Source: a virus. From it: DNA of 64,000 bases. Where the stretch lies: the IMG/VR virus record IMGVR_UViG_3300034683_000333; one strand, written 5' to 3'. Below are positions 219 through 62,313 of the stretch, piece after piece. A program made the position numbers and the translations under genes. The notes below the pieces were generated by a model. That model saw nothing but the letters and a program-made list of their open reading frames with translations. It was not told where the DNA came from and ran no database searches. Numbering within the stretch: the first letter of the stretch is position 1; every line of letters begins with the position of its first letter.

Positions 219-344
219 TGCGTTACTAATATACATAGAATTAGTTATTTATTCAATGTAAATCAGAATTTTATGTTTGTGGGGTGTATTTAGTTGTTAC
301 ACTGGCGTTGTCACGAGAATTTTTGACAATGATTGGAGGAAACA

Positions 345-827
345 ATGAAGCACTAGAAATATTTAAAATACATAACAAAACATAAGTAGTATGTATTTAT
401 CGAGTGTGTTAAAATGGGGATTCCATTGACTGGAATTTTCCATGATTGGAGTAAATTTAGGCCATCTGAGTGGTTTCCATATGCAAACTACTTTTTTGGA
501 AAAAAATCAAAATACACCGAGGCTAAATTTGATTTCGCTTGGTTACTTCATCAAAAACGAAACAAGCACCATTGGGAGTATTGGGTTTTGCGTGGGAAAA
601 ATGGCAAGGTAAAGGTGTTCCCTATGCCGCTGAGATACAGAAAGGAAATGTTAGCTGATTGGATTGGGACAGGTAAAGCAAAAAACAATAAAAACGACGT
701 TGTTGAGTGGTATTTGAACAATAAACATCGTATTATTCTACACTAGCATACTAGGAGATAGATTGAGCGAGAATTGGGTATTGATCCATTATTTAATCAA
801 CCGCTAAAGCCATCAAAACAAAAGTAA
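345..827 (+). CDS. HD-like metal-binding protein (DUF5662-type), 160 aa, with 4 in-frame TAG read as Trp
   Basis: GGAGG SD before ATG 345. Reads MKH*KYLKYITKHK*YVF...FHDWSKF...NKHHWEYW...EMLADWIG...ILH*HTRR*IERELG and ends TAA 825-827. TAGs at 354, 387, 744, 759. Confidence 0.7.
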
Positions 828-26682: not shown

Positions 26683-29430
26683 TTAGATCAGGATGATCAA
26701 CTCACTTTCACCTAATGCGTGTCCAAAATAAAGGTTTTTGTTCCTAATATGTTCCATACCATCGTGATCAAGTAGCATAATAACGTTTTTCACAGGAATA
26801 TCTTTCATTTTGAGTTTATAACCATTTTCTGGATCATCTCCGTGAGCAATTGCAGTTAAATAGGGTTGCCAATTTTTCTTGATACGTACATCCACACCAT
26901 GTTTCTTCCAAACATCCAACGTTTCCTCAATGGGTAAATAATTATCGTCGGCTTTTGAAAAAATACTTGGTATTCCACTATCATAAGTTGTGGAGACAAC
27001 ACCTCCCATTATATACCACTTGCCATGTACGGAAGGACCATGTTTTTGTGGATCGATTAAATAATTTCCACGGTATATATCGTGGCTTATAACTTTTTCT
27101 CCATTTTTGTCTTTTATACCAAAAAATATCTGTGCATCTTGTCTGTTAAGATATTCTTGGGTGGTTTCATATATAGCTTTAAATTCTTTTACCTAAAGTT
27201 CTGGTACATCTTCTTCTCGTAATGAATTTGGGTTCTAATTATAAATTGAATTTCTTACATAGTCGAAATCATCCGATACTGAAATATTAAGGATATTTCG
27301 TGCAGTTCTCCTTATAAGAAGTGAATTGTTTTTATTTGAACTATTGAGCCAATTACCAATAATATTATGTGAAGAGATTCTAAGCATATCTATAATATTG
27401 TCATCGTTATGACCAATGCGCTTGAGTAAATCTGACTATGCTTTTGGCTTTATTGAATTGAAATATAAACGATGAAAATAAGTACGATTTAGGTATGGAT
27501 CAAGTTTTTTGAGATGTTCTGCGAATGTTGATCCATCAAATCCATCGGGTCGATATACCACGTCATGATCGATAAGTGCACCAATCTGTTTTTTAAGTGG
27601 GTCATTTACATAGTATCTAAAAGCATTGTATGTGAATGCATCTTCAAATTCCTTACTATCTACCAAGCCTTTGGCTATGGCGACACTCTAGGCATCAGTG
27701 ATGTTTTCTTCCTTACCATATTTATCCCATAGTTTTGCCGTATGTGGTAAATCTAGGTCTGTAACCATTTGTGACCATTTTTTATGATAATCTTTATCAT
27801 ATATACTTTCAACCCAAGAACTATTCGAATAAAGATAGGATAGCTTTGTTATCATCGATCGTGGATCATCTTTATCCCATAAGCTATCCACGATCTTCAC
27901 AAAATCTTTTACTGGAGTATTTCCAAAAACGTGTTGTCGATCCGATGTGAGACCCCATTTAGACATCGTGTTGGCAACCGCAAGATAAAAGATAGCGGGT
28001 TCTTTGTCTTTAACTTTTTTAGTCCAATCGATTCCAGAAAAAATATCAAAATTTTTTTTCTTTGTGGAGCTAACATATCCAAGAAAATCAAGCGTTGTTT
28101 TCAAGAACTCAGTAAATGATACTGGATAACCAGTTTTAGAAAGCGTCATGTAAGACTGACCTTCTCCAGTTTCAATAAAGTGTTTAATGAAGGATTTAAG
28201 TCTTGTAAATGTGTATTCTTCATTACCCCATTCACCACCCATATATTTTTGATGCCAATTTGGTCCACGTTCCGAAACACCGACAAAATCTCCAATGAGT
28301 TTTTCAAAGTTTTTAGTTTTCGTGAGTTCATTAAAGTCAATTAACTTTTCGACATTCACAACTTCACCTTTGTAAATACCATATTCATTAACTTGTTCTT
28401 TTTTGACATCAACGGTGGTTTTCATCTTGTCAATTGAGGTTTCCAGTTTTGTGACTCCAGGACCGAACAACCGATTAACATTTAGAATGCCAACAATCTC
28501 CCTTGCATGGCGCATGGCAAATGTTTTGATATCCGCCCGATCTTGCATCGAAAGTTTTCCGGTTTTGGCGTACTCTCGAATCCAATTATCAACTTGAAGT
28601 TGTTTGGTTGGAGTAAGCTTGAAAACACCCTTACCAAGGTATTGTTCGTAAAACGGTCTGATGTTGGGATCTCCATGAATTGATCGGTACATGTGAACAA
28701 GCTGAAGGGCATAAATGGAGCTTTTTTCAATAGACGAAATAAGACCATCGGTCGTTAGTGGGCGTCTCTTTTTGCTTGGCTTCCCACGCTTTGGCTTAGC
28801 TTCGGGTACTGGTGTAAGGGATTTCGATTTTGTTGCTTTCGCTTCAACGGGTTTGGAGACCGAAGTGAGATTGAATTCCTTCGCCTTCTTTGCAATCACA
28901 TCCTTTGGAAGCTTGAATTGTCGCCAACGATTGTTACCATTTAAAATATCGGCAAGCTGGTGGGAATACTTAGGCATTTTTGCCTGTACCGCATCGATGG
29001 CCCGTTGAAAACTACGTGGATCGGTTTTTTCCCAATTTCTGAATCCTCCGTAGTTTCTTATTTTACGAATGAAATCGGCAACAAAAATACCATCTGGTTT
29101 ATTAAAACCAACGTTATTTTTGAAAATTGTTCTTCCAAAGTTTTTTTCGGTATCGGTTTGAAACTCCCAAAGAAAAAGAAATGCTTCCATTGCGTAATCT
29201 TTATCGGTTGATATTCTATGCCTTATGTCTTTCCAGTGATATCGATTTATGGGTTGATCCATGAAATAATCCACATTTTCCTTCATTTTCTTGAAACTCT
29301 TCTTATTTGGGTCTACCCAATAGGCATTAAGTTTACGAATAGTTTTGACTTTTCCACCCTTTGTTTTGATTCTAGTAGTAATAAACTTATGAATTTTAAT
29401 TAGCTTACCTTTGTTCTTTAAACGAGGCAT
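26683..29430 (-). CDS. 915-aa multidomain protein with a basic N-terminal hairpin (probable virion-packaged internal protein), 4 in-frame TAG
   Basis: Track ORFs 27688-29430, 27436-27666 and 26683-27009 share one frame. Ends TAA. Paralogue of 29481-30518. AACTAATTT motif at 29474-29482. Confidence 0.7.
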
Positions 29431-29480
29431 TTTAACTATCCTTTTTTATTTGCCTTTTATGTAAAATTAGAAAAAATTAG

Positions 29481-30518
29481 TTAAAAGTAGTTGTTAAATA
29501 ACCACCACGAGTTCTCCTTCGTGGTAACCACCCCAGCCTGGACAATCCTTTGTATTTTTGATTCAAGGTTTGCCTCATGTGGATTGAAAAGCTTATTCAC
29601 GTTAAGAATACCGGCAAGTTCCGTTGCTAAATAACTAGCCGTTCGTTTTACCCATTTCTTTTCTTGATTTGAAAGTTTACCCTCGCTTGTGACGGATTTG
29701 TAAACCATCCATGTGGGAGCATCGATCGTATTCCATGCGTCAACAAGCGTCCTCCTTCCAAGATAGGCACCGTAACGATCGAGTAAATCCTTGTTATTTA
29801 CGATTGTGTCAAGTAGATGAATCATCTGAAGGGCGTATTCTGAACTACGGTTGATTGAATTTTTGATTCCATCAGCCGTAACAAGTTTGATGCGACGACT
29901 TGGTTTTCCCTTTTTTGTCTTAACACCGCCCTTTGCAAATTCCTTAACGGTCTTTGACTTATTGTGTAGTTGTTTCGTTTTCTTGACAAACACGTCTTCG
30001 GGAAGTACAAATTGGCGACGAGAATTATTTCCGTTTAGAATATCTGCAATTTGGCGTGCATATTTAGGCATAACCATTGTAAGTTTTTCACGCCATAGAT
30101 TGAATTCACGGGCATTTTGTTTCTTCTATCCAGCAAGACCCCCCATTCGTCGAATATGTTCAATGGATTGTGATACAAAAGCTCCATCGGGCTTGTTGAA
30201 ACCAACGTTATTTTTGAGTATCGTTTTCCAAAGTTCCTTTTCCATATCCGTTTGAAATTCATACAACATAAGGAAATTTTCAAGTGCATAATCTTTATCG
30301 CTAGACAATTTCTTTCTAATATTTCTGTGATCACATTTTGGTTTATCGACGAGAAAATAATCAACACCTTCCTTGAGTTTTTTGAATGACTCTTTGTTGG
30401 GATCAACATAATATGTGCGAAGAATTGTTACTGGAGTCTTACTTTTACCAACTTTTGTATTCACAAGCTTTTTTATCTTCAGCAACTTGGAATAGTTCTT
30501 TTTTCGACCCATATCCAC
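29481..30518 (-). CDS. Shorter paralogue of the 26683-29430 N-terminal half, 1 in-frame TAG
   Basis: Shares YVDPNK, DKDYA, EFQTD, KNNVGFNKPDG, MPKY and ADILNGN. TAG 30126-30128 aligns with Trp in the paralogue. AACTAATTA motif at 30538-30546. Confidence 0.75.
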
Positions 30519-30577
30519 ATTCCTATTTAGTTTTTGTTAATTAGTTGGTTTATTTATGAAGCCTATAAAAAGCGAAA

Positions 30578-30602
30578 GCCCGCCATGAATTGGGTGGCGG
30601 GC
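30578..30602 (-). terminator. Intrinsic terminator after the UDG gene
   Basis: GCCCGCCA...TGGCGGGC hairpin followed by T-rich sequence on the minus strand. Confidence 0.6.
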
Positions 30603-35280: not shown

Positions 35281-35298
35281 GCGAGAAGTCTCCACCTT

Positions 35299-41401: not shown

Positions 41402-41687
41402 AAGATACGACTTTAATCAAATCGTCATTGAGCATTGTTGCCAACGCTTCAGTTTTTTCATTTGATTCAGTAATTTTAAGAAGAATGATTTTACCATGAA
41501 GAGATTGGATGTAAGAACAATTATAGGGAGTTTCGCATGTATAGACTTCATCACACATATTACAAGCTTCTTCAATGCAATACGGGCAACCTTTTTTGCT
41601 CAAATTCTTCAAAACATCTATGGCTAGCTTACCCTTTTCTGACTATACTTTTTCACAATTAGTACATTTAAACCATAAAATTTTCAC
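41391..41687 (-). CDS. Cys-rich zinc-binding protein, 1 in-frame TAG
   Basis: GTG 41687 overlaps the upstream TGA and has an AAGGAG SD. Reads MKILWFKCTNCEKV*SEKG...CPYC..ACNMC. Ends TAA. Confidence 0.6.
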
Positions 41688-42094
41688 GGCTCAGCTCCTT
41701 TCTTTTTACTATTTACTGTTAATATCATTTCAATTGGCGAATAAAATTGCTTGATTGTATCAATGGCATCATTAACATCAAACTCTTTACATGTATAAAT
41801 ATCAACACTAATAAATTGCAATTCCGGCTAAGTGTGCACACTACAAGAACATACGACCGTTCCGCTTAATCCGCAATCCGTTTCCGTGGCAATGGATTCA
41901 TAGGCATTGACCACTGGAACTTGAACAATAATCGGGGGGACTAACACACGCATTCCGATCCGCTTGGTCAACTCATTCATAAATTGGTGTAAATGATCGA
42001 TCTTACCGAGAAGAGTAGCATCGACTCCATAGCAGTCCACGCAAAGTCGCTGGCGAAACGGTCCAACACGATTGTAATCGATGCCGTAACTCAT
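41684..42094 (-). CDS. speD: S-adenosylmethionine decarboxylase proenzyme (SpeD/SpeH class)-like, 1 in-frame TAG
   Basis: GLSG..SVHT*PELQFISVDIYTCKEFD matches the family signature HTWPE..xxVDxFTC. AAAGGAG SD. Ends TGA 41684-41686. Confidence 0.75.
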
Positions 42095-42173
42095 TTTAGA
42101 TACTCCTTTCACGTCTCTCATCTAGTATATTTTTTGTGGTTTGTACTATTAGTATATTCTTTAATGACAAATA

Positions 42174-42182
42174 AACTAATTA
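42174..42182 (+). promoter_or_regulatory. Putative late-promoter motif AACTAATTA
   Basis: 51 nt upstream of ATG 42233. Confidence 0.6.
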
Positions 42183-42232
42183 AACAACACGGAAAAAACA
42201 ATACACAAAACATTTTTTTTACCGAGGGCGAC

Positions 42233-45200
42233 ATGCTTGCATATTTTAAGGTTTACTGGGATTTAGAATATACCGGATTTCCATCGAGTTCATACAGTAA
42301 ATTGGAGAAAATTTATATTTACGAACCAATTCCAGATATCAACATGAGTATCCAGGAACTATGCGACTGGTTAAACGAGAAAAAAGAACGAACGAATACA
42401 AAAGTTGTTCTCGATAAGTATTATTATGGAATTCTTCTGGCAAACTTTTATATGTACCCATTTGAACCAGGCTACATTTACGGATTCATTTCGTTCGTAA
42501 ATCCCATCAAAAATGCCACAATTCGTGGGATTTGGACAAAATCATTGAAGATGTTTGATCATAATGTTATCAAAACAGAAATCGACAGTTAGAATAAAGA
42601 CTTTCTCGTTAAATTAGATGATTTTATTGAATATGACCATACAATACTAAGAGATCTTAATTATTCAAAATGGTATATTTTGTCAAAACAATTCAATGCT
42701 GGTGGTTCAGAAGGATATCTTAAACTAAATTATCAATACGATTTTAGCAAACCAGGAGAAAATTGGTATTACAACACAATAGCAACAAATAAATGGAACC
42801 TATTGGAACTGAACGATATTACAATATCAAACATTACTATTGAACCATTGTCAATTTATAAAGGATATCCAATCATCCCAACCAATCTTATCGACAAATC
42901 TACATGGGAAGTGTCGGATGAAACAACACGGGTGGATTTGGTTAGTTCTTCAATTGAAAATCCACAAAACAAAGTATTTTTGGGTATCGATCCACGAAAA
43001 TTATCTGAATTTAATCGTTGGTTGAGAAGTTTTTGGCTGAATAAAATTTATACTCCACCTAGTTACATAATTATTGAAGAACAAGAAACGGCTGAATTTC
43101 AATGGCTATCCGGTGTAAATGGCGTTTTATTGGATCATTTTATTGTAAAAGCAGATTTTACAACAAACGACATTTCCTTTACATCACTTTTATCAGATGA
43201 TGATTATACTCATATTCCTATTGATCTTTTAGCAAGCGATCTCTACGCAACGGATCGAACATATTCAGAACGTCACTTTACATCACCCATTGCTTTGGAT
43301 GAAGAAGCAATGAAGAGATTGCCAACATATTTTTATGATATGGGTGAATAGCAAAATGAAAAAAATCATCACTATCTATGGGAAACCAACCACGTTCTTG
43401 ATAATTGGTTTTCCAAGGAACGATCCATCGAAGACTATACGGATACGGCAGACTGGATGGTAAACCAAAACAATGCCGTATAGTCCCTCGACGTTACCAC
43501 CTTCAATTGGTTTCAAAAGGTCCATAGTCGATTTCGTCCATTCTGGTCTGATTCCTGGGCCGTAGGAGATATTTCGAGTGCTCAACCCCATTTTTAGGTG
43601 TTTTACAACCTGCGATGGATGGACCAAACCTCCCTGGATCTACTCAATTCCATCAACTGGAATCCACGAGACGTACAATGGTGGGTTGAAAACATCCATA
43701 TTCTTCCCCAAATAAAATTTCATCAGCGATGGTTCATGTGGGAAATCGACGGAACCGACATGAACATCGTCAATAAAAACATCCACACATTCGATGATTT
43801 GCATCCCGTTCAAATAATCGACAATTCCAGTATGGTTCTCCGAGATTGGAACATTGTATTCAATGCCAACGATTCGACCCAAAATTACGTTCTTGTAGAA
43901 AAAACCTGGGAATGGAATCATTCGTGGGAGTTTGAAACCACGGATTCCACGTTTGCTTCAAAACCTAAACAAACTCTCCTCTTAAACCTCAATTTTTACG
44001 ACGACAACACCACACACCTTTTCGATGCAACTCACCTAGTTTCCGATGTAACATTCTCATTTGGATTTGGAGATTCTTCAAATCTTGATTCCACATTTTA
44101 TGAAAATCTAATTACGCAAAAACTTTATGAACAGGATAGCTCCGTTTTCTTCGCTTGGCAGTTCCTTTCGTCAATGTACTTAAATTTTGATGAACCGTTT
44201 AGTGTAAACGAAATTTATTCTAACGATAATTCCACATTCATTTTTCCAGTATCCGTTCCACATATGGATCTAACTCAAATAAACTTTCCTGATACAACAA
44301 TGGATCACCCAACGCTTGGGTTGATTCTTTACAATCTACACGGAATTGAGTTTAAAACGGAAGTAGAACAATTTTTGTTGTGTATCAATTTGATGCACCC
44401 GATTACAAGTGGTTATGTATCCAACCAAAATGGAACATAGATAAGTCATAACAAGTAGCCGTGGGTCATACAATTCAACAATCTTGATCGTCCAGTCTAT
44501 AACGGGCGACGATATGACATGCTCTATCAGAAATCCCTGACAACCAACAAGCCAACAAGTCGTGATGTTACATACATAAACTGGGATATGACGGACATCA
44601 ACGATCCACAACCAAAACCAGTTGTTGACTAGACATTTGATAAGTGGCTCATTGTTCCGTATTCTGATGGAAAATATGACGCATTGGCTGTTTATGAAGA
44701 TTATCCAAGTGATGTGACGAACTACTATAGTATGTCATTGTACGAGGCGTCTCAAGGATGGAGATTTTCAATTATTGTTCTTTACTCTACCGAAGATTCT
44801 TCAGTTGCGTTATCAAATAGTGGTTTTGTTGATGATGCATATAAAAAAGTCACGATTTCGAAAATCAACAACCCCAATTAGAAAATCCGATTTGTCGCTC
44901 CCAACATGTAGATCGTGAGAGATCCTGGTAAGCAAGAATATTACGTCGATCCTACAAGAACCATCGGTAAAATAACATTTTTTGAAAACACGCAAATTCT
45001 TTGCGATGATATCCACGATTACTTCAATGAAATTGGAGTATCACCCGTTTTCATAAGCGATGGTACTACATTTGATATACCAACCCCAAATTATGCATTT
45101 GGAAAAAAATTTACTGATTTTACAGGAAAACTTTATAACATCGACCAAACGACACAAGTAATAAAAGAATTATCTGGTAAAAGTATCGCCAATAAGCTTT

Positions 45201-46789
45201 TTAACTAGAGTTCATTGGATTCAACAAGCCTATGGAAGCTTGAAGCGATTACTGCCCCGATGAATAACCTCGCTATTCGAATGTACCACCGTTAGTTCGC
45301 TTGGGCTTCACAATAGGATGCATTTAACTACCCACAACAACATTTGAGACAGGCAAATGCTTTCGTCGGTATGTTAAGTGATTCACACGTTTATCTATCT
45401 TAGTATCCAATGAATAGAAATTACATTGTACGTGGCAATGGAGTTCGTAATCCATTGATTTATCCTAATACAGGAGAAAAAAATCCAAGCGCTTATTATT
45501 ATGACTATGACTATTATTATTCATTACCAATGACATTTGCTTATTATGATAAAATAGAAGATACATTAACAACAAAATCAAATAATACAATGGAATCTTG
45601 GATTTCTTGGATTCTACTCTTATATGGAAAGAGAATAGTTAAATTCAACGAAAAATACACTGATAAAACTAGTTATGTAATATATGAAAATGGTTCTATT
45701 GGTTCACCACTTCAAAAAGTCGATGTAACAACTAACATTCCAATAAAATAGCACGATAGTTCAATATCATATCCAATGATTTTGTCAACAGATAATTTTG
45801 ATACATCAACGACAATTTATCAATCAAAAAATATTATACACGGAGCACCATTTATTGATTTAACGGCTGTACTTTCAAATATAAACTACGGCGAATCGTT
45901 TAGTGCTAACCAATATAATGGATCACTTTTCATTAACGAAAATGTACTCCGATTTGATGCAACATATGAACAATTGCTAACTCCTACAAACATCGTGGGA
46001 TTAAGTAGCGGAAACTACATTTTTGCGGCATTGTGGTCGAATGTTACTTCAACACAAAATGCTCATACACCAAACTACTTTTTACAAATAATGCATCAAA
46101 ACACTATCTCCGGTGCTTATACCCTTTAGGATGTAGCTCATCCAAAGACAGAACTTCTCTCACACGAAAATCCAAGTGTAGACATGCTTGAAAACTCGAA
46201 TACAGGATATTTCAGTAAGTAGTATGCTATGTTTCGTTTGAATGCACAATCATCTGATAGATTGTTAACATCAGAATATTTTGATGATTTAAATTACTGG
46301 GTATATGATATTGGATATTGGGGTAGTGATATAGAGACTTATAATAATAATGAAATTATAGAAAAAGCAACAACTTTGCCACCTGGAAAATGTATGCTAA
46401 TTCAAAAAGATCTACCAAATATTCTTTTTGATGATGAAAATGATCTTGATGTATAGTATTATGGAGTTATCGACTCTTCAGGAAATGTATATTGTGCCAC
46501 AACAAACAATTATGGTGATGCATATTAGGCAAGCACAATTGACTTAAATGAATTTATTGCTCGTGGCGTTCAAGATAATATTGATAGAAATGATCCAAAT
46601 CTTGACTCAGACGATGATTAGAGGATGAAATGGTTCTACAGCATTGTCGATGAAACTGAAGAGTATGTACAGAATTTTATAAATATTGTAAAAAATTAGA
46701 ATATTCCACCAAAAACCGGAAACTTATATATGATTCTTCCTTATTCCGAGTATCTAAGTAAGAAAATGATAAAATATTTGATTGAGTAA
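42233..46789 (+). CDS. Large putative tail/baseplate protein, 1518 aa, about 20 in-frame TAG
   Basis: Eight track ORFs and the gaps between them share one frame with only TAG interruptions. GAGGG SD. Ends TAA 46787, then a terminator. Confidence 0.75.
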
Positions 46790-46797
46790 ATAGAATG

Positions 46798-46840
46798 TGG
46801 TGGTGGGATGAGAATTAAGCCCACCACCATTTTTTTTTTT
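46798..46840. terminator. Terminator between convergent virion genes
   Basis: TGGTGGTGGG...CCCACCACCA followed by a long T run. Confidence 0.75.
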
Positions 46841-46842
46841 AC

Positions 46843-47931
46843 TTAGATTAGATCTGATTCGTCATTGAATCGATCATAAACAACTGAATCCATGATAACT
46901 TCATTTGTATACTTTAGCGGTTTCAACCAAGGATTTGTTTGTTCAGTAACAACTGATGTAAGTCCACTTAAGTTAGTTTCACTTGAAAAAAGACCATGTT
47001 TTTCCAATAAAATTTTTCCAATCGACCACTGAAAAAGATCTTGATTTCCTTCCAATTGAACAACCAATTCTTTAAAAATATTATACTTATGAGAAGAAAA
47101 AACAACTTGTGAACCAGCATTTCCCCTTTTAAATGCCGTTGGAACATGAAGCATACGGTAGGTGGTTCCAGATCGTGTGATCACGGTTGAATTGTTTGCA
47201 AAAACCACCCAGTCGTGACCAACGAATGCACCCTGAAGAAACGATTGCAAATTACTACTCGATGGTTCAACGGTGAATGCGGTTTCGGAATTCTCAAGAA
47301 GGGATTTAGTAGCTTCAAAATCCCACGAATAGAATCCAACATTCGATACATCGAGATAAAATGTCCACTGCATCCGATCCAAAATTTGATAAGTTTGAAA
47401 GACAGTCCATGGTTCACCCACGGAAATTAAAGTTGCTTCTAGAGACGCCAGAGTGGAATCATCACCCAAGGAAATTGATTGGAGCTTGGTCGTCCTTGTG
47501 CCGTCCCACCCAGCAAGAACCCAATTATCTGTTGTCTATGATAGATGGAGCGGGGTTTTTGATTTGACGAACGAGACCGTCTTGGAAGAATCGGTGCTAT
47601 CCAGAAAAAACCTACATTCGTCGTATTCAGAAATGAGAAACGACAAGATTTGACTGTTGTTTATCTGAAACGATGCAAAGAAAAGATTTTTATCTGTATC
47701 GTTCCACAACTTTAAGAGTTCCATTCGATCAACGATTAATGTTTCTGGGCATTTAAATGATTTGTACGCACCAGAAAGTGCTTCAGCAGTTATATAAAGT
47801 TGATTATTGTTTACCAAAATACAATTACAATATAAATCTCCAAATGGATAAACTTCACACAAGTGTGTTACGTCAGAATAAAAATGTTCATCAATCTATT
47901 GCGTTAAAAAGTTGTGCCAAAGGAATTTCAT
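46843..47931 (-). CDS. Putative virion protein, 362 aa, 2 in-frame TAG
   Basis: GGAGG SD and ATG 47931. Joins track ORFs 47536-47862 and 46843-47469. Confidence 0.65.
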
Positions 47932-47946
47932 TCGGCATCCTCCATA

Positions 47947-50256
47947 TTATATTGTCGCATCCTTACTTGCTATAATTTCCTGTAATTCACGATTACCAAT
48001 TACAAATCGAAGAGCAATATCTTCCGATGTTAGCTTCTTAAAATGTAACTTCAATTGATCCAAATTTTTTAATAGCCGTTCTAAATACAAATTTTTCTCA
48101 TCTACTGATTTATCAATAACAATGTAAAGAAGTTTCAAAATATCTGCATCCGTAAGGTTTTCACTTGATACGAGTTCAAAACCAAGACCATATTCATATA
48201 ACAAGTTTACTGGTATGCTAACCGTTTTTCCGCCATGAAAATCAAATCGAATCAACCGTTGTGTTAATTGATTATCCATCTGATGAAGCTTAAATTCGAG
48301 TTTCCATTGGTTCCTCGTATCGTCCCGATGAATCATGATTTTTGATAACTCTAGAACATCTCCATCCATTGCCGTTTTAAGAAAAAGAAGACCGTCATAA
48401 TCCACATAGAATGTGTTGGGTTGATCGGCATGAATCGGGACAATCTGAAAATTGGTTTTATCAGCAATGATATTCAATTGTCTGTTCCCATTTTGATTTC
48501 TTAATGCGAAAAGGTAAGAAGGAACTTTATTTTTCCACGAAATCTTTGCAAGTGAAGTATTGTCCAACGGGGTTGACACAAAACCCGTGTCTTCCTAGAG
48601 GCCGTAACATTGCTCACTGGAATCCAAGACCATTTTGGGCTGGGCACGTGACAAAAGACTTTGATCTTCAATCTCCGAAAGATTTTGTCCCGATGACCAT
48701 GTTTCCATCGTTACCTGAGCGCTCTTAATAGAATCAACAAAAACGGGATGAAATACGTAAGATTGTATATCAATAAATCCAAGTTCTTTCCATATGTCCA
48801 TAATATACGTAATGGCAGATGAATCTCTCTAGCTTGTTGTCTACTGAGAGTTTGTGTAATGATAAGGTACTGTATTTAATGCAATTAAAGTCTCGAAGCT
48901 ATAATAAGATTTATAGTTCTAAATGGTACCATCAGTGCTTGTATAATCAGTTTCATTTAAAATATTTTCAAGTGATTTTGTAATATAAGCCGATGTAACA
49001 AGTAATTTAATACTTTCTTCATCGTTTGTTGGATAAAGTGTATCTGGTAAAAGGAGCGACACTGGTTTTTGGCTTCTAATAAAATCCAAAGATAATTCAA
49101 CATTTAACATATCATCAAGTTGACCGGGTGTTGCATCTGGAAAAATGGAATATAACATGTTTGAGATATCCATCATGTCGAATGTGTAATACAAAATAGT
49201 GTCTTTCTAATATGAAATTCCAACTTTATCCCCATCACGTGTAAAATTCATAACCTATCTCGGACTTATGGTATGCTAAGTATATGGAAAATCACTCCGT
49301 TTTACAAAGCAACATTCATAATCTTTAGATGATAATGCCCTACTATTGCTCATCTTACAAATTGGAAATAACCACGAAAGAGCATTGGATGTAATGTCAT
49401 AAACGTCCTTAAAGTATGTATCAACAACTGTTGTAAATTTAAAATAATCATCAAAATCGTAATTATATAAATATTCAATTGCTAAGTTGGTGTGGTAGTC
49501 CAATTTCTCAGTACCGTCAACAGCAAACCAGCTAACAACTTTCATTTTATCTGAATCTGGTTCAAGATAACAATCAAAAAGAGATTGACCTAGATATTTC
49601 ATATCACCAAAATACAAGCTGTAAATTGGGTAAAGAGCTAAGTTTGGTTTCCAATCATCCTGCTTTCCAATTGCGCCTAGAAAAACGACAATATGATCAT
49701 TTACGGTACCGGTGTTTTTAATTGCATATAACAATTCATGAGGAAGCGCTTCCTTAACTTCTAAAACTTCATGTGTTTCAATGTTAAGCTTTACAGCAAT
49801 TGGCTTAAGTGAGTCAAATATGTATTTAGGTATCACACTTCCTTTACTTGCTTTATGAATGAGCTTTTTATCTATAATTAACTAATTATAATACAACTAG
49901 TAAGTGTCTTCAGTCACATATTTAAGCATCTATTTTGATTTATCATTAAACAATGAAATCGTCTATGCTGGCTCTTGTTCATAATTCAATAAAAGTTTAG
50001 CATACCAGTCTAAATAGACGGCACCAGGAGAACAAAAAACGTCAGTTAGCTTGTTGACAAACACACCATTGGAATATAAAATGAAGTCGTCGTTTTCAAA
50101 GAGTTTAAGCGTTTTTGTGAAGTCCCACACATCAACATTATCCATGACTGGGGTAGATTCATAAAATTCATTCCATTTAGATAATGACGTGGGAAGTTCG
50201 AAGTTTATATAGGACTATTTCGGTAAAAGCGTTCTAAAATAAAACGGAGAAAGCAT
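47947..50256 (-). CDS. Putative virion protein, 769 aa, about 12 in-frame TAG
   Basis: AAGGAG SD and ATG 50256. Joins five track ORFs. Ends TAA. CACTAATTT motif at 50290-50298. Confidence 0.7.
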
Positions 50257-50322
50257 TATAGTTGTTCTCCTTATCTCAAAAGTTTTGATAAATTAGTGAC
50301 CTTTAGGAGGATTGATACCAGA

Positions 50323-50412
50323 ATGTGGTTTTTTGTTTTGGGTGTTCTGAGTGGATTGGTTATTGGACATTTAATGGTAATTAAAATAAGCATAGAGGAA
50401 AATAAAAAATGA
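50323..50412 (+). CDS. 29-aa single-TM membrane peptide
   Basis: AGGAGG SD. MWFFVLGVLSGLVIGHLMVIKISIEENKK. Below the ORF-track cutoff. Confidence 0.55.
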   Translation: MWFFVLGVLSGLVIGHLMVIKISIEENKK

Positions 50413-50540
50413 TATATGTTTTTACTCTTTTATACATAATAGGATATGTGATTGGATTGTTTATTGCTTGGTATTTTGATCGTGATCTTTTATTGTATAA
50501 GCACGAAAGAAAAATAGGTAAAAGTAGGATTTATGTGTAA
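50409..50540 (+). CDS. 43-aa single-TM membrane peptide
   Basis: ATGA overlap with the previous peptide. MIYVFTLLYIIGYVIGLFIAWYFDRDLLLYKHERKIGKSRIYV. Confidence 0.5.
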   Translation: MIYVFTLLYIIGYVIGLFIAWYFDRDLLLYKHERKIGKSRIYV

Positions 50541-50548
50541 AAAAAAAA

Positions 50549-50570
50549 GTGGGGGACCATGATCCCCCAC
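50549..50570. terminator. Intrinsic terminator
   Basis: GTGGGGGA-CCATGA-TCCCCCAC with a T run on the minus strand. Confidence 0.7.
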
Positions 50571-50580
50571 TCAACAAAAA

Positions 50581-52866
50581 TTAGACCAACGTAAATTTAA
50601 AAAACCTTCTCTATTGTCCGTAATGTTCTCTTATGTTACCATAACTAACTATATACCAGTCTGTTGTGAAATTAAGGGTACCTGCGTATGGTCTTAAATC
50701 AATTAGAAAGGGTCTTGATACATTGTTAAAATCGATATGTTGCCAACCACCGTCATTCCACCAAATTTCAAGATTTAGAGTGCTAACGGGATAAAAGAAT
50801 AACATCAGAAAATCGAACGCCTCTCCTGGATTGAAATAAGAAACAAGTGCACCTTTTCCGGGGTTCTGCAAATTACCATAGGTAATATCTTTGATATTCC
50901 ACCGTGAATTACTTACAGTTTCGATGATTGTTGTATCACTACACGCATATACAGTTCCATATTCCAATAGTTTAATTTCATCAGCAAAATTTGGTAGAAC
51001 CTGTCGTATCTACGGAGTTGCATTAGTATACATATCCATATAAGTCTAATCAACTAATGGAAAACCATCAAAACCATTATAGTAACCGCCTGTAAACTTA
51101 GTATACGTACCACCGAACACAACAAACTTTTTGTCGTCTACCTGAACAACACGCTGTCCATAAGCGGGACGAAAGTCAAATTGATACTGTGAAAGTTTAT
51201 TATTCATGACATCTAATCTGCTAATGGTATTAGAAAGTATCGACTTCGTGAAAAAATCATTATAAGATGGTTGAATCCCTTCTTTAACTTGTGCAACGGC
51301 TTTCCAAGCGGTCCAACCATCAAACGTACCGTCGGCGGAATTGTAACAACGTGGAATAATGGCGTAAGCAGGATCAATACAAATTGCTATCCTTGACATT
51401 GGACTATACCAAGGATCGCCATTTTCGTAATTCGCTATATCAACGACTGTTTGATCACTCCATTCATACTCCTTAATCGTCCAAGCCAATTCACCACTAC
51501 TAACCTGATCCGTGAAGTAAATGATATACACATCAGAAGAGGATATTGAGTTAGTCTCCGTTGCCAGAAAAGAGCGACCACCAAAATTATTATAATTATA
51601 TAAAGTTCCATCCTATGTCATAACTGACATGCCAGTATATGTCGAATAACCATAGGCATATGCTGTTTTTCCTTCATCATAATAAGTTCCAGATGAATTA
51701 TAGTTGCAAAATGGACCACCACCAAAATAAACATACCCAGCACCATTTTCTACATTAAAATCATGTGTATAACATTTAGAGACTAAGGCCCCATATTTAC
51801 CGGTTGTATAATCTGTCATGCTAGATACTACAGTACGATCTGTTGATTCATTCAACGTTAACTGAAGCTGGTGGTGCATGATGGAAGTTCCGTCGGCAGG
51901 ATTCAAACCACCATTTATATAAATTTTAATATCGGCGGTTTTATATAGTGATAATATTGGCCCAATGGATGGGTATGGATTAGTCCAATCAGTAGAATTA
52001 TCACTGTTCTTGACAATTGTGTAACTAGAAGTATCAAGAGAATATGCATATAAAAATTGATTTACTGTATTATCATCTTGATACCAGCCACCAGCCATAT
52101 ATAAACTATTGTTATATGGTACCTAAATGATATCATGCTTTGCAAGTGGAATACCAGTGTTAATTATTGTATAAGAACTTGGATTATTTTTTACATCTGG
52201 AAAAACAATTAGTTCATCACTTATATTTCCACTGGCGTCATATCCACCATGTACATACATTCTCGTTCCATCATAACATGCGGCGTGCCACTTGTTAATC
52301 ACAACATCCATCGGGGCGGAATAACAACCATAACATTTTGTATCAAAATAAATATTACCATCCTAATCTTCCTGTTTTATCGTCTTGAAGGTCATAAGTG
52401 TTGCATTTGGACTATCCGAGTGTTCAACGTAAACAGAACTAGTTACAGGATTCTTATAGTCATCGGTATCAGTATAATGATACATCTCATCTTCTTGAAC
52501 AGTTAGATTCTGTACTTTAGGACTTACATCGAAAACCCACACATCAGTTGAATCCAAGCTTACACACAAAATCCACGTTCGATTATTTGGGATAAATTTA
52601 GTGGAACTATATATATATCCACCAGTAACAATAAATGATTTGACTTTATGGTTTAAGTAGGTTTGTGTTCCTCCAATTTCGTGTACATGTTGCATACATA
52701 TATTATCCACACCAAAAAGAGTTGAAAAATCAAACAAAACGACTTCGTTGGTATTTGAATTAAACACATAAAGGTTTGTATTTACCTAACTTGGGTCTGT
52801 TGAATGTAGTCCAACGTCTTTTCCATAAGTTGTGTCAACCTTAAGCTAAGCTCTATCGTATGCCAT
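50581..52866 (-). CDS. Kelch/beta-propeller protein, 761 aa, 8 in-frame TAG
   Basis: TAGGAG SD and ATG 52866. Kelch-like RMYVHGGY, LYMAGGW, YVYFGGG and FVVFGGT motifs. Ends TAA 50581. Confidence 0.7.
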
Positions 52867-52920
52867 TCTTTATTCTCCTAATTTAAGAAGTTTTATTTCA
52901 GTTTGTAATTAATAACCATA

Positions 52921-53532
52921 TCATAAACTCGAAACCATGGCTTTCCAGGCTCCCAAACCATCCTCTTTTACCCACACACCCTTGGTGGCATCAAAAATCC
53001 AAAGATCGCTAAACTGAATTTCATTTCCATTATCATCAAGACCCCACCCACCAAAAATTCCAAACCCACTGGGCGTTGGAAACCCACGTGCAAATACTCT
53101 AGGTTCCGGTTGTTCGCCACCAGCAATTTCAACAGTACTGTCATACTAAGACACACTAGATTCTTCATAATCTCCCCAATAATAAGTTCCACTAACGCTC
53201 TAGTAAATGATACGATTTGAAAGCCCTCCATTATCGACATCGAATCCCCCAAAGGCATAACCTTCAAATAAATATGATTGATAACTTAAATTCGTGCCCC
53301 ATATTGTATTGTTTCTTTTTACAACAATCGTTGTATGTAATAAATCACAAATATTTTTTGACGAGGGATTTCTGACTACACATTTTGTAAAGAATGATGG
53401 TGTGTTTTCTATATTTGGACCAACAATATTCTTTGAAAGTGTATCAAAATATATATACAAATTTTTTGAAAATAGTTTTGGATATGCAGGTACCAGGAAT
53501 GCACCCTTTTGAACTGGGATAATAATTGGCAT
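52921..53532 (-). CDS. Protein with a Kelch repeat, 203 aa, 2 in-frame TAG
   Basis: GGAGG SD. PEPRVFA...GIFGGWG...FSDLWIFDATKGVW. Ends TGA 52921. Confidence 0.65.
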
Positions 53533-53553
53533 AATGTTCCTCCAAGTATTTTA

Positions 53554-54759
53554 TTAAATTATTTGTTCGTCTTTAGAAGACATCTCAACAAATGAAACTA
53601 CCTTAATACCTTCAGATGTGAAAATGCTTAGTGGTAAACCAAAATCAACAAATATATAGCGACTCTCAGCCTCACTTTCCTCGACTGGTTGTACATTATT
53701 ACTAACAATAGTTAGAATACTATTTAGTGTTGGAAAATAAAGTCCTGGTAAATAATTATAAATTGTAAAATCAACTTTTGTGCTAAATGTTCCAACAAAA
53801 CCGTTTGTAAGATCATCACATTCAACACGAAAATGATAATCAACATCCTCTTTCATAGTAAAGGGATGTGCATATTGTCCAGTTGTAGAGTGGGTGTTTG
53901 AAAATAACGTCGTTCCATCAGAATCCACAAGTGAAACATTCAACTCGTGACTTGTTGTAACATCATAAGTAAGGACTTTATTAACAAAAAGGTGTGGTTC
54001 CTGTGAAGATAGGGTGTATTCCAGGACAACCGCACCGGATGGTGTATTGTCTGTATCAAAATTATAGGAAAGATCATAATGTTGCGTATCGGTTAGTTGA
54101 AATTGTGGATGATGAATGAAAAATAACGAAGAATCTTGGTATTGCTAAGATGTAATATCTGGTAATTTAAAAGAGTCAATAGAATAAGTACTATAAATGG
54201 TAGTGTTGTCACTTGTGTTTCGCTAAAATATAAGTAGCAGGTCATTTTCAAGATTAGAATTAATCGTTGATTCTGTATTGTCTCTAATATAAAACTTTCG
54301 TACTAAGTTAGAAGTTGTAGAATAATCGTAAGCAATTATATTGTAAAAGTTATCATATGTGGAATCAACTTTACCTGTTTTTATTGAATCATTATCCTCA
54401 TCACCACTGACTAACAAAACGAAAATTTGAGAAGAGTCTGTCCACGAAGCAACATTTTCGTGTTCTTGTAGTTCAAAGATTTCCTATTCGTCGAAATTAT
54501 AGAGATTTATGAGATTTGTGACATCCAACACACTCAATTTTTCAATGATAGCTTCGACATAAGTGACATCGGAAACGTTTCCGTGACCCGAAATGTTGTT
54601 TAGAACCCAAATCATAACTTGATCATTAATGTAATTATCTACTCTGATTTCATGTGTATCATCACTTTTAGTTACAAAACCAAAATCTTTCAGCGATGGT
54701 GTATAAGATTTGTATCCACGTGTAAGTGCTACATTTGTTATATCGAGTTTTACAGCCAT
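53554..54759 (-). CDS. Putative virion protein, 401 aa, 3 in-frame TAG
   Basis: Joins track ORFs 54484, 54223 and 53554. Ends TAA. Confidence 0.65.
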
Positions 54760-54777
54760 AGAGACATCCTTTTATTT

Positions 54778-57700
54778 TTACCGAATATATTTTACAGTTG
54801 CTTTGTATGATAAATTGGTACCATCACTTGTTGTCACTTTAATACCACCTATTTGTTTTTTATTTTTAAATTTACCCTTAATTTTTACCTTTTTAGCTGT
54901 AGTTGTGAAGAAACCGAACTTCGGAGGCTCCATTTGCTCAAATTGATCTTTCACGGTAAAATCATAATTATAGTTCCATATAGACAACATTTGTTTTGCT
55001 AACTTGTCGTGTGGAATCATTGGACCAATAACAAACAAGTAATCACCAGCTTCCCTATCCTATAATCTAAACGACTGTAACATATTTTTCTATTCTGGAA
55101 TAATAATATGTTCCAGGTTCGTATCAAGAATACCACCAAGCGGTGTATTCAAAGGTGTGTCAGATTTACGAACGATACGTACTGGAGATACTTGTAAATA
55201 CATATAAGTAGGATATTTGCGTGTCATTTTCAACCGCATGGTAGTGGAATCAACATTTGATAGTGTATAATCACAACCATTTACATAACTAGTCGAACTT
55301 GAATATCTGTGTGTATACGTAAAAGCAAACATATATGGAGACAACTTTGATGCATCATACGTTCCATCCATGGTAAAGTCCATGGTGACAGTAGACAAAG
55401 AATCCATGAAAAATCCATTACGAGCTTCGTTTTCGCTAATGTTGCTAGGTGAATAATATCCTATTACATGATCCTAAAAATTCCAATCAACCGAATTGTC
55501 TATGTAATCCAAAACAAGCGTGAATCCAAAAAGATCCAAACTATCAGCAAGATTTTCGACAGATTGATCATATTGTTCTGGTATCGTAGCAACATCCGTT
55601 GCAACGGTTGGTAAAGGTGTTTTATCTGAATGAAGAACAACATATGAAAATGGATATCCGGTTATGTCAGTAACAAAGTATGAAAAATCAACTGGTGTAA
55701 AATCTGGATATTTAAGTTCCGATGAAGCAAAATTATAAGCAAATCGATTATACTTCAAAGATATGGTACCAACGACTCGTGGTTTGGTTAGCTTATAAAG
55801 TTCTCGTTGAATTACATATTCATAATTCGGATAAAAATTATCATACATAGCATTGGAAAATGGAACAAAAACAAATTCAGTATTATTCTGCAAATCAATT
55901 GTTAATAAATTCCGTCCTTGTTCATTGGACATAATGGCTTTTGTTCCACCATTAGAACTAGCGTTACCATAAACAATTTGATCCTATGTAACCGATCCAT
56001 TTTTACACGAATCAACAAAAGCGGTTTCACTGTTAATATAAGCAGAACTAAACGGATTAAGTGCTGGATGAGATAAAAAGGTTTCTTTTGAAAAAGAATT
56101 TGAATAATCAACAAATGTTAAGTCCAGATCTATAAAAACATCATTGAAATTGTATAGATTTCTATCTTGGGATTGACTAAGTGTATATACTATGTAAGGA
56201 AAATAACCATCTACAGTATAGTCAATTGAATCGTATACATCATCTGAGAATACTATGGTATTGTCCCATAAATCATAATTCCAAGTCGATAACCAAAATA
56301 CGTCAAAATCAAGAGATACACGCTTCACAAATTCTGGAAATACGATGGATGTCTTGAATGAAGTGGCGTCCCAAAGCTGGGGTACATTGTATCCAACAAC
56401 CTTCCCTGAACGAGTTTTTTGACGGTTGAAATCAAAAAGAACGATCGGAAGACCATTGTGCCAACGCACCGTTGGATGAAGCGAATTCCAGAAAATGTAC
56501 TCATGTTCCAAATCAACATCTTCAAAATTTTCATAAAAGATCAATCCATCATAAATGTCAACCGCATCGCTTTCAAACAAAAGATGATTTCGTGCATCAA
56601 TGTATCTAAGTTGATCCATTTCCCTATCATAATAAACAATAAACTTTGGATTTGGATCAAACCAATATATTAGAGTTTCTTGTTGGGGTTCTGCAATTGA
56701 GGCATTAAAAGCCTTATACAATAGTTGATGATAGTTATGAATGTTGTCAATTGAATAACAAAGATGTCCATAAGTAGAATCAACATTATCGTTGGCGTAG
56801 TGATACGTGCAATTCACCTTATTGCAATAAACAATGATCTCATCAAATGTCTGCACATCATAATTATAAAAAGTAAGTGACAAAATGTAATAATCATCAT
56901 TTTCATAAAGACGATCCACAATTACTTCACCAAAACGCTTTACCAGTTCAATATGTTGATAAGTTGTGTCGTTTATGATGATATCAATGGTATGCTCATG
57001 TTTATTGATAATTACGTTTGTTGGTGATAAAGTAGAATCCGTATAGAATGTCATTGGCAACTTATCAAGATATGCTGGGTTGAATGTACCATCGGGGCTT
57101 AGTTCGCCACCATAGAGAAGATTATTGTCATAAAACTCTATAAAGAAACGTGAATCGTCGAGGTTTGTTTTATAAAGATTGTAAACACCCAATTTTTCAT
57201 CGATTATCGCATTCGCAGGAACATTCATTGAAAAAAGTCTTCCAGAAACTTCATTGTAAAACCACCAAATGTCCCCATATTTTGCCAACGGATAGGCATA
57301 AAGAAGACCCGTAACATCCCAGGAATGAGTCAAACTAGCTTGAGCTGATTCGTCGTGCCACCAAACGGATTTCTAGGTCTTATCAGTTGTGGCGTTGAGG
57401 TTTCCAAACACGGTGTGATCCTGAATGTAGGGAATTGATACTTCCAAAAACTTATCAAAATAAGGAAGACTCACGTAGACTAATGGATTACTTGAAAAAT
57501 CGAATGACAAATGAGAAATCCAAGGAATCTTCTTTGCAATCTCCCACTGAAGCGGTGAATGGATGTTTTTAACCACCAATTCTGTACTCATACCCGTGGA
57601 ATCGGTGACATCCAAATGAATGGCAAAATCATTCACCCGAGTAATCGTCGTTTCGACGATGTTTGACCAATCCACCGCAGGATTTGGCGTTCCCCAGTGA

Positions 57701-60700
57701 AAAACGGTTTCTTGATTTGTTAGATCATAAGTTCCAAGATCAAGCGAACCGGTTGTAAATCTCCTATACGTTTCTCGATCTTCGGATACAAGATCATCTG
57801 CCGCCTCCCACTTGAGCCAAAAATGCATTCTCGTCACAAAATCCCCCGTAACTTGAAGGGTCGTCCCATCAAATGAAAAGGTCGCTGGAACAAAATCCGT
57901 CGTCCAGTCGTTTGATAGGGTGGCCCATAGATGATTTCGATCGTCATTGAAATTGCAACCCGAAACGGATGTGTTGAGATTTGTGATGTCCACCTGACGC
58001 CAGTTGAATGCAAGCTCCAGATTGATCTTGGCATCTCTTAAAAGCGCCTAGTGAGTGGAATCGGCTGTAAGATCGTACTTGTATATTGCCAATTTATCCT
58101 TTTCAGTTCGATTGAACGTTCTGCCAAAACCCAACACCCAGTCGTTACCTTCGTTGGTTGTCCAAACCGTTCCCGTTTCCGGGTTCCATTGCTTTGGTGA
58201 AAGAACTGGAAAATAGATATTTGAGTGGAGAATGGGCTTTTGGACCAATTTTTCCGGTTGTTTTACTGGATATAGAAATTCATTTGTCGTTTTATCAAAC
58301 GTACCGGAAACGGGTTTTACAAGTCGTGTCCAAACCGTAGACTAAATTTCGGGGTCCTTAGACTAATAACCATACGGTAACAGCACAAAATCGTCACACG
58401 AAATGACACCATCGGTTTCAATTAATCCAACTCCTTCTGTAGTACGCTGAATCCAGCGCATATCATAAAATCGATTCGTTTTAAATACGTAATTTGCCCA
58501 TACATATCCATTATAGGACGCCGAAAAACAATCATTCGTTGGAACATAAAAATACTTCCACATTGCATTGTGATAATTTTCCAGACTAATATACGTTGAG
58601 TCAAAATTCTATTTACCAAACTAACCAAGACCACTTAACCACATTTCCTTCTTTTCTGGATGAAGTGTTGATGTATAAATCGTTGGAACATTATCAAGAA
58701 CTTCTTCATTGAGCAGTTCTGGAACCTTGTAGGATGGTGCGTAATAATATCGTTTTTTATCGCTAGCTTCGAGTAATACATATTTACTAATATCTGTTTT
58801 ATAACTTATTGTGTAATAGTTATCAAACTTTGCTCCTAGAAGCCTTGTATGAGTATTCACATCTAGGTGTTGTCCGTAAATAGAACTTAATTCTTCGGTA
58901 TAATAGGGCTTCCCATTTGTTCCTTGTCGAGATGAACGTAATTCCAATGTATTTTGAGTGTGTATAAGTAATTTAGGATAATTTATTGATAACCAACCAA
59001 AATCATACCGATCATAAATTTGGTATTCAGATGGATATGGAAATTGAATGTCATATTCATCTTTAAAAATCAAATCATAATTGTCCGATATTCTATCGAA
59101 CCTGGACAACCACAAATACATTCGATCCTGCGGCTAACGCTGTGCCATTAGAGTTCCATGCGCCAAAATCTAACTATACACATTATCATTATCTAAAACA
59201 TATTCATACTTTGTGCTGTTAAATGTTATTCTATTACCGATTCTTGAATGACTAACATTTGGTGGATTAGAAAGATCCACGATAAATTGATAAAGCGAAC
59301 CACTCGCATCAAAAAATATTGGATCTAATTCTATTGTCCATATAAACCATCTGTTTGTCTTGTGATCCTAAAACGTCTAGTGTTTATTATATCCTGTGTT
59401 ATTATAATTCCATAAGAGACTTTCATCACTAAGATAATAAGCATCTTCTTCGACCCATTCCGTACCATCCACAAGACTCATAAACACAATCATAGGTCGT
59501 TTGCTTTCTGAATAATAGTTATCTGTAACGTCTTCTGGGCCGATGAATACAAATTTTGTGTCGTCAATTTGTTCAAATGCCTCTGCTAACCCAATGTACG
59601 TATTGGGAATGTCTGGTAAATCAATCCAAGTTGATGTATCTAGATCAAAAAGAGCTAAATTCTAAGGCTTGGTAAATCCACCCTAACTAAATCGCTTATT
59701 GATCATGTGAACCTTATTGTTCCTAACAGTAGATGGCAACCACATCGTATCTGATGTATTGACACCAAGTCTCTCAACTGAACGGTTTTCTAAATCATAT
59801 AATAGTGTCCCAACCCCATCAGGATTCCATCCACCAATAGTACCCTACGAGTACTTACGGACAATTAAATATCTACTATTAAAATAAAAAATATTAAGAT
59901 TTGTCATTCCAGCATTATCATTTATCTAACTTTGTAATGATGTTCCGTCCCATCGAAATACTTTACCAGTACCTTGATCGTAGTGAAACAGTTGTGTATT
60001 ATCTACAGCAAAAACGGAATCCGTGAAAAATGAATAAAACAATTCGGAGATCTATGTATTTTTCTGAAATACCTTCAACGATGGATTATTGAATACTGTC
60101 TGGTCAGCATTAACCGTTACAGAGTCATAATCATATAAAATATCGTTTTTAAAGCTGTTAGTTATAACAATGGATGTTTCATCAATATGCGTCACATCAA
60201 ATGATCGCACATCATATTCAGGTAATTCATATCCTTTATAAATAAAAGTTGATGCTGTATAATCCGGTGAAATGGTTAATGTAACAAAACTATCAACAAA
60301 TGACTAATGTTTGGTAAATACGCCAGATGAATCAATTTGTAAGAAACCACGATTACCTGGAATATCCTCTTCTGCTACATCAAACTTACCCTTTAATGAA
60401 CTGTGAAGTGAATAGTATTCTGTATTATATATAAAATCATAATAACCAAGACTCTAATTTCCTGTAATATCGTTTATTGTGCCACCATAAATATTATAGA
60501 CTTGCTTATATGCTGGATTCTAATAGGCTGCTTGTACAATATATGGTAATGTTCTAGGAATAGTAATTTCTTGTACTGAATCAACAAAAATACTACCCAC
60601 ATTAATAAGACTCTTTCCAAAAATTGTAGGATCAAGTGAATTTATCAACCAACCACCGCTACTTTGTATGTTATAAAATTTTACATTGTCCCAAAAACGT

Positions 60701-62313
60701 GTTTCAACAAAATCATACGGACGAGATATTACACCGAATGGCGTCCGCTTGACACACGGATTGCTCTTTGACCACTGACCCAACGTAGCAACCGGAGCCG
60801 CATCATAGGGTCGGTTTCTTGAATACGTAAACGTTCCAACCATTGGCGTTCCATTGATAAACGAAATCCTCGAAACATCGCTCACGATTGTAACATCAGA
60901 CGAAAGTTTAAGCTTGTTACGATTGATCCAATAAATTCCAGTCGTAGTATCCACCAAAACATCTGTGAGCGAAAAAGTATCTTGGTCGATAACCTAATTT
61001 GAAATGGAATAATCGATAAGTAGGTTATTCAACGGATGAAGAATAAGCTTTGTTGAATCGATGAGATTAGAAACTTCATGCTGTAATGTATCTGAATTAA
61101 AAACTACCTGGATCGGCACATACCCCACAACACCGGAATTGAATTGAATCATCATTTGATAGCACGAAACATAAGTTGTTTCATCCGTGTGTTTATGTAT
61201 GTTTGAAGATTGAATTTTTATGAGCTTAGCTTGTGAAAGTAAAGAATTGTCTATAAAGTTTAAAACATTAAACGTTGTATCAAATGAACCGTTTTTTCCG
61301 GTATACCACTTATTTCTTACAGATTCGAAAGTTGATCGTACTTCACCTTCTTTATGTTCTGGAGCATATTGTAGTAGTAATTTGTGTGTTGGAATAGTAT
61401 AAATATCATTAGAATTTATAAGCGGCGGAGTCGATAAACCCTAATTATATGTTGGCTAGTCATTCCACGAATATCCATAAAATGCGGAACCGTAGTTTAC
61501 TGATGTACTATCCAAGCCTCGAATAGAATATTCTTTTGTTATTGGAGAATATTGAAAAAACTTCCAATTCCAATCGAATGAATACTTATATGTTCTTATT
61601 ACAAGGTTGGTAGAATCCACATACATATCATAGAAAACTGAAGTCACATTATTTGCTGGTTGTCCAGAAATGAGTGCAATGAATGATTTTCTTCGGTGCT
61701 TAAAAAGATTATAAAATTTTTCCTGAATCGTAAATGAACTCTTAATAATGTCGTTTGGTGGAACAAAAAGATGCTTAATCGCTTTCTTATTATATACCGC
61801 ATCCACAACCTTTGAAAAATCCGTGAAATCCGTTTCCAAAACCTTAAAAGAATGAAGAATCAATTGGGGTTTTATTCTTTGATGGGTTGAATCAATAAGT
61901 AAATCTTCTACAATAGGATCACTCACTTTAGCTAATACGTCATCGAAATTGATGGAAAGATTACTATCAAGATAATTATACCAATTGTTTACAAGATCTT
62001 TTCCATATTGTTCGTTACTAGCAAGATTATTTTCCAATTGGATCATTTCATCAACAAAAATATTATTTAACCGGCTTGCATAAACATTGAAACAAAACCA
62101 TTTTAACGAATCGTTTCCTATAGTCTTATAATCAAAGAGTGCATTCTTGTTATTTTCGAGTGTAAAATCACGCAGTGGTGTCTTGATGGCAACCCATTCC
62201 ACACCAGGCACGGCATAAATGGACTCATCAACATATTCTGCAAAAAATTCTTGTGTTTCTCTCCGCTAATCAATAATCTTCTAATCCAGGTTTTTAACCG
62301 AAAATTTATTCAT
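54778..62313 (-). CDS. Giant beta-rich putative tail/baseplate/receptor-binding protein, 2511 aa, about 27 in-frame TAG
   Basis: Hand translation from ATG 62313 (GCGGAG SD) to TAA 54778, using the ORF track inside its ORFs, found no TAA or TGA. Joins ten track ORFs plus about 1.4 kb with no track ORF (59122-60519). Confidence 0.75.

Follow-up and report, generated by a model that had tools for sequence, protein, structure and literature searches.

Does one amber codon, aligned with a tryptophan in a paralogous gene, establish which amino acid a phage inserts at TAG? The question is raised by two genes, here called A and B, in a 64,000-nucleotide stretch of viral DNA (IMG/VR record IMGVR_UViG_3300034683_000333) that was analysed as a whole and that we refer to as the window. 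The original prediction saw in this pair a self-contained proof that TAG encodes tryptophan. Our analysis supports that conclusion through other genes of the window, and not through the paralogue column: sequence comparison favours, with a probability of roughly 0.8, a natural genetic code in which the phage uses amber TAG for tryptophan.

The paralogous genes A and B

The features of the pair are as follows.

29481..30512, minus strand: gene A, 343 aa from ATG 30512 (345 aa from GTG 30518), matching phrog_21015 (E = 3.5e-10)
26683..29430, minus strand: gene B, 915 aa, its N-terminal 340 aa paralogous to A
30126..30128, minus strand: the in-frame TAG of A, codon 131 with the GTG as codon 1, facing Trp133 of B
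29032..29034, minus strand: TGG encoding Trp133 of B, facing the TAG of A

The predicted homology of the two genes was confirmed: BLASTP of A against B, with X placed at the TAG, returned 146 identities in 342 residues (43%, E = 2e-78), and MAFFT gave the same register. The TAG indeed lies opposite a tryptophan, with 24 residues from GG to MPKY in both proteins, and no gapped alternative outscored the pairwise alignment that puts it there. Gene A itself also stood, its start moving from GTG 30518 to a likely ATG 30512 because an AGGA lies 8 nt upstream of the latter, which is aligned to Met1 of B. The only in-frame stop of A is TAG 30126-30128, and B contains four in-frame TAGs (27688, 27436, 27235 and 27193), all in its C-terminal part; every internal stop in the two genes is a TAG and the terminal codon of both is TAA. 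A and B are the only paralogue pair within the window.

Both proteins share a module of about 340 aa at the N terminus, the core of which is a helical domain of about 100 aa, phrog_21015, that is widespread in phages. The match in A spans residues 62-163 and profile positions 9-100 of 103, a full-length family match, and residues 67-165 of B match the same family (E = 4.6e-09). A search of 1.84 billion representatives with a profile of A and B yielded 215 homologues of the domain (A residues 62-166), with the conserved motif QT..E..T..N.VGFN..D; the domain has no Pfam family. Most phrog_21015 members are stand-alone proteins of 100-130 aa, whereas in A and B the domain is flanked by a basic N-terminus and by a C-terminal part that is helical. 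A few family members are fused to SNF2 helicases, with the domain at the N-terminal end (profile matches P0137 and P0140). The N-terminus of the window's own SNF2 helicase carries a GFNKYD motif resembling the N.VGFN..D core of the A/B domain.

An AlphaFold2 model of the module, made with 74 sequences, reached a pLDDT of 74.5, with residues 61-170 helical and above 89. Foldseek of this model against the PDB returned nothing at E <= 0.001, and VIA-align retrieved only generic helical bundles over residues 205-314, with Z up to 8.5. Beyond phrog_21015, B matches no Pfam or PHROG family; no family was detected for its C-terminal 575 aa, and phmmer of residues 341-915 against the PDB gave only spurious matches to Kelch designs. 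To judge by the late-gene context and the in-frame TAGs, A and B may be expressed late. A word-index search with A found a 99%-identical variant in a JGI metagenome (P0003) with a different, longer and Lys/Glu-rich C-terminus after ...ESKIQR (window 29481-29550), and the C-terminal end of A therefore seems to be exchangeable between strains.

What the alignment says about TAG is a separate matter. The homology of A and B is far beyond chance; a single tryptophan opposite the TAG is not. Tryptophan is poorly conserved between the two proteins: apart from Trp133, B has five Trp, aligned with Y, H, Y, R and W of A, and the partners in B of the five TGG-encoded Trp of A are G, A, T, W and D, so that Trp is kept at one of five other positions in either direction. 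Around the TAG of A, local identity is 4/23. Across the alignment, B has Trp at 1/5 of the positions where A has W, at 2/11 where A has Y and at 1/5 where A has H, against 0/10 for Gln, 0/48 for Lys and 0/32 for Leu. Because the first three values are alike, the column fails to separate Trp from Tyr or His; it weighs only modestly against Gln, Lys and Leu.

The claim of a self-contained proof had been staked beforehand on a column that does not vary among homologues, and it did not survive the homologue profile. Among the 150 listed of the 215 profile matches, the TAG column holds K in 23, T in 14, N in 10, L in 8, E in 8 and W in 6, with other residues in the remainder. In the five closest homologues the residue four positions after GG is L, Y, F, F or M, where B has W. 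The TAG of A thus seems to occupy a hydrophobic or aromatic position, GG-x-x-x-[aromatic], of the phrog_21015 domain, and the subfamily column, best described as 'hydrophobic or aromatic', argues against Gln and does not single out Trp. As a lesson in method, a single column from paralogues that are 43% identical hints at the residue and does not prove it.

TAG read through in a divergent tailed phage

The window is part of a large and very divergent tailed phage in which TAG is a sense codon. Its recognizable genes include the following.

12399-14141: T4-type large terminase (TerL)
14745-15896: Gp23-like major capsid protein
38410-40605, minus strand: SNF2 helicase
35269-36606, minus strand: RRXRR and HNH protein, IscB-like (PF14239, E = 1e-70)
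41993..62313: TAG-rich late and structural block, with genes of 1598, 362, 769, 761, 203, 401 and 2511 aa that contain 20, 2, 12, 8, 2, 3 and 27 in-frame TAGs, respectively

The sequence signature of TAG being read through as a sense codon in this phage is unmistakable. Same-frame segments of at least 80 aa joined by a single stop are joined by TAG in 26 cases, by TGA in one and by TAA in one, and the gene ends in the window are all TAA or TGA. Reading through TAG opens ORFs of up to 2511 aa (27 TAGs) and 1598 aa (20 TAGs). With such a block of TAG-rich genes, the recoding is genome-wide and not a local oddity. The codon is unevenly used: it accounts for 1.1% of the late block's codons versus 0.22% in the remaining genes, is frequent in structural and late genes with few occurrences elsewhere (DUF5662 and AdoMetDC), and is absent from the genes recognizable as those of replication and repair: the SNF2 helicase, the RNA ligase, the core of the UDG and DUF488. 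ARAGORN found no tRNA within the window; decoding would be by a phage tRNA with anticodon CUA that is charged with tryptophan.

In addition to the genes listed, the window encodes an SLT lysin, a T4-type RNA ligase, a uracil-DNA glycosylase (UDG) and DUF488. Most of its late proteins have no match in Pfam, PHROG or GenBank phages, and an SLT protein search against the PDB gave no match. The phage is very divergent: blastn of the window against GenBank phages produced no match, tblastn against phages found nothing for A or for the 2511-aa, 1598-aa and 769-aa proteins, and pattern scans of IMG/VR (with TerL, A/B and the 1598-aa fragment), of JGI metagenome contigs and of GTDB genomes retrieved no DNA of the phage's relatives. 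Word-index protein searches returned only the window's own fragments and fragments of relatives; apart from the variant of A, two further searches found fragments of one 66-79%-identical relative. Moorella phage MTATph1 was considered as a close relative and rejected, its whole genome sharing only four genes with the window.

Several smaller features of the window concern its gene borders. The standard-code frame of the RRXRR-HNH gene ends at TAG 35299-35301, and readthrough would add ten codons before a TAA; this gene is possibly a mobile element with TAG as its native stop. The heptamer ACTAATT occurs 17 times in the window against 15.2 expected and is not over-represented overall, yet nine of the copies precede gene starts by no more than about 100 nt (most of them by at most 70) and share the orientation of the gene, A, B and the capsid gene being among these (29475-29481, 30539-30545, 15993-15999, 18771-18777, 4458-4464, 22087-22093, 32965-32971, 50291-50297 and 62351-62357), which makes the heptamer a candidate late promoter element. 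At 30570-30600 (minus strand), in the interval that separates the UDG gene from gene A, a G+C-rich hairpin with a T run after it resembles an intrinsic terminator, directly upstream of the ACTAATT of A.

The amino acid at TAG

Two further genes with homologues outside the window carry in-frame TAGs.

333..827, plus strand: DUF5662 gene with four in-frame TAGs (PF18907, E = 6e-38, 130 bits)
354-356, 387-389, 744-746 and 759-761, plus strand: TAGs of the DUF5662 gene, at codons 8, 19, 138 and 143
41684..42121, minus strand: S-adenosylmethionine decarboxylase (AdoMetDC) homologue (PF02675, E = 6e-15)
41828-41830, minus strand: TAG of the AdoMetDC gene, at the aromatic position of HT[W/Y/F]PE

The DUF5662 gene is the strongest evidence on the code that the window's sequence offers, with two of its TAGs in Trp-dominated columns. 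Searches of GTDB genomes, GenBank phages and IMG/VR, with patterns that left out all four TAG columns, supplied 95 distinct homologues sharing at least 40% identity. In these, 78 of 93 residues at column 19 are W, against 8 Y, 3 F and 1 L; column 143 is W in 40 of about 90, R in 10, L in 8 and Y in 6. Column 8 holds L in 29, I in 15 and W in 12, and column 138 holds P in 52 and E in 14 of about 90. When sets of four non-Trp positions were drawn at random, none of 20,000 matched the Trp score of the four TAG columns. A smaller set of 12 homologues of at least 45% identity from GenBank phages and GTDB has ten Trp-majority columns, at which the window has TGG in six, TAG in two, a Leu codon in one and a Tyr codon in one. 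The TAG at 744-746 lies in the Pro-conserved column and, if TAG is Trp, represents an unusual Pro-to-Trp replacement.

The TAG of the AdoMetDC gene aligns with the W of HTWPE in the Aquifex structure 2III, the Thermotoga structures 1VR7/1TLU and cyanophage S-H38; Moorella phage MTATph1 has Y there, and two other phages have F. By this alignment the column is aromatic, and W is its commonest residue (three of six homologues). As a separate observation on this protein, it lacks the Glu-Ser self-cleavage site and reads VV-CSCSVHT where the 79%-identical P0005 reads VVYLESSCSVHT, a three-residue deletion; the homologue may be inactive or may cleave elsewhere.

A Codetta-like likelihood over six columns (four from DUF5662, one from AdoMetDC and the A/B subfamily column) was best for W; relative to it, the natural-log values are -6.2 for F, -7.4 for L, -10.4 for Y and -22.8 for Q, which corresponds to about 500-fold for Trp over Phe and e^23 for Trp over Gln. 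A nearest-homologue BLOSUM62 version with eight columns again placed W first and F next at -6.0, the informative columns numbering only about eight, with four from one protein. By these comparisons, homologues show a strong enrichment of Trp at the TAG columns. That the amino acid at TAG is tryptophan is the most likely reading, with good confidence.

The alternative that survives best, although unlikely, is that TAG stands for Leu, Phe or Tyr, a hydrophobic or aromatic residue other than Trp, inserted for example by a suppressor derived from tRNA-Tyr (GUA to CUA) or tRNA-Leu (CAA to CUA). Several TAG columns are generically hydrophobic and would accommodate it: column 8 of DUF5662 with its L and I, the A/B subfamily column (L, Y, F, F, M, W) and the AdoMetDC column, at which half of the six homologues have Y or F. 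In the 1598-aa protein, TAG816 likewise faces Met in the 279-aa fragment of the only closer relative found (66% identity), in which 11 of 11 TGG-encoded Trp are conserved. The single L, three F and eight Y against 78 W at column 19 of DUF5662 argue otherwise, as do the eight L and six Y against 40 W at column 143 and the lower log-likelihoods of all three residues. Two fragments of this relative end at TAGs that they share with the window, the 279-aa fragment at TAG822 and the relative's AdoMetDC fragment (P0005) at the TAG that it has in common with the window's gene.

Less probable still is a decoding that is not uniform, whether ambiguous, context-dependent or by a non-standard residue such as pyrrolysine from a Pyl-decoding host, although hosts of this kind occur in subsurface and oil-field settings. 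It could account for the TAG in a Pro-conserved column and the one that faces Met. However, ordinary divergence is itself expected to produce one or two odd columns, and a residue unrelated to Trp would not put two of four TAGs of DUF5662 into the four Trp-majority columns that lack TGG, nor would it fit the permutation result of 0/20,000.

Glutamine, the assignment of genetic code 15, is very improbable and strongly disfavoured by the alignments, even though counting TAG as Gln equalizes the Gln content of TAG-rich and TAG-poor genes: Gln leads no TAG column, is absent from columns 8, 19 and 138 of DUF5662 and from the AdoMetDC and A/B subfamily columns, makes up 3 of about 66 residues of the IMG/VR set at column 143 without being among the commonest residues of the pooled set, and has the log-likelihood of -22.8 relative to Trp.

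Three other approaches to the residue were set aside. With TAG counted as Trp, TAG-rich genes contain 3.0% Trp, which is high, in late proteins that are also rich in Tyr and Phe; with TAG counted as Gln, the Gln content is 3.84% in TAG-rich versus 3.73% in TAG-poor genes. Composition thus slightly favours Gln and cannot decide. A classifier based on neighbouring context was discarded after true Trp sites ranked 18th of 20 in its calibration, and TAG119 of TerL, opposite an Ala of T4 gp17, was uninformative at an identity of 23%.

Known recoded phages and the proposed code

In the anticodon of tRNA-Trp, CCA to CUA is a single change, and TGG to TAG is likewise a single transition. The E. coli suppressor Su7 (supU) is an amber suppressor from tRNA-Trp that has the anticodon CUA and reads UAG; it is a laboratory mutant that GlnRS mischarges with Gln to a large extent. 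A natural amber-to-Trp system would have to avoid Gln charging of tRNA-Trp(CUA), and it would therefore be of interest for the engineering of orthogonal tRNA/synthetase pairs. We know of no TAG = Trp assignment in the NCBI code tables, and a full-text literature search gave no report of TAG-to-Trp in phages or bacteria.

All TAG-recoded phages described so far read TAG as glutamine (genetic code 15), among them crAss-like, Lak, Garnet, Topaz and Agate phages (Borges et al. 10.1101/2021.08.26.457843; Peters et al. PMC9523058). The window's phage resembles them in having in-frame TAG over many genes, with few or none in early and replication genes and a high density in late and structural ones, and in having genes that standard callers split. 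It differs from them in that its TAG columns fit Trp and never favour Gln. Phages that read TGA as Trp (code 4) include the Jade phages, which have their own TrpRS, tRNA(UCA) and RF1 (Borges et al. 10.1101/2021.08.26.457843). The proposed code is like theirs in reassigning a stop codon to tryptophan and unlike theirs in the codon concerned, which is TAG; TGA still ends genes in the window, with one TGA junction against 26 for TAG. No phage with TAG = Trp is reported by Borges et al. (10.1101/2021.08.26.457843). Phages whose recoded stop codons set late genes apart from early ones are known, and TAG-to-Trp would be the new variant.

If the assignment is true, it is a third kind of phage stop-codon reassignment, beside TAG = Gln and TGA = Trp. 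Genomes of this kind would be mistranslated by standard and code-15 callers alike, the latter putting Gln at about 1% of late-protein residues, often at conserved tryptophans.

A TAG at a conserved tryptophan also occurs in another phage. An unrelated IMG/VR phage, IMGVR_UViG_3300017963_000242 (79.8 kb), has a DUF5662 homologue of 50% identity with a TAG at 853-855, and it is listed together with IMGVR_UViG_3300017971_000652 for a DUF5662 TAG opposite a family-invariant Trp (W84 in the window). No tRNA was found on the 80-kb contig of IMGVR_UViG_3300017963_000242, and none of its six candidate joined frames has a Pfam domain across a TAG. Its stop junctions comprise 19 TAG, 14 TGA and 8 TAA, an excess of TAG that is not clear. 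The codon in its DUF5662 gene may be a nonsense mutation, or this genome may be a second phage in which TAG encodes tryptophan.
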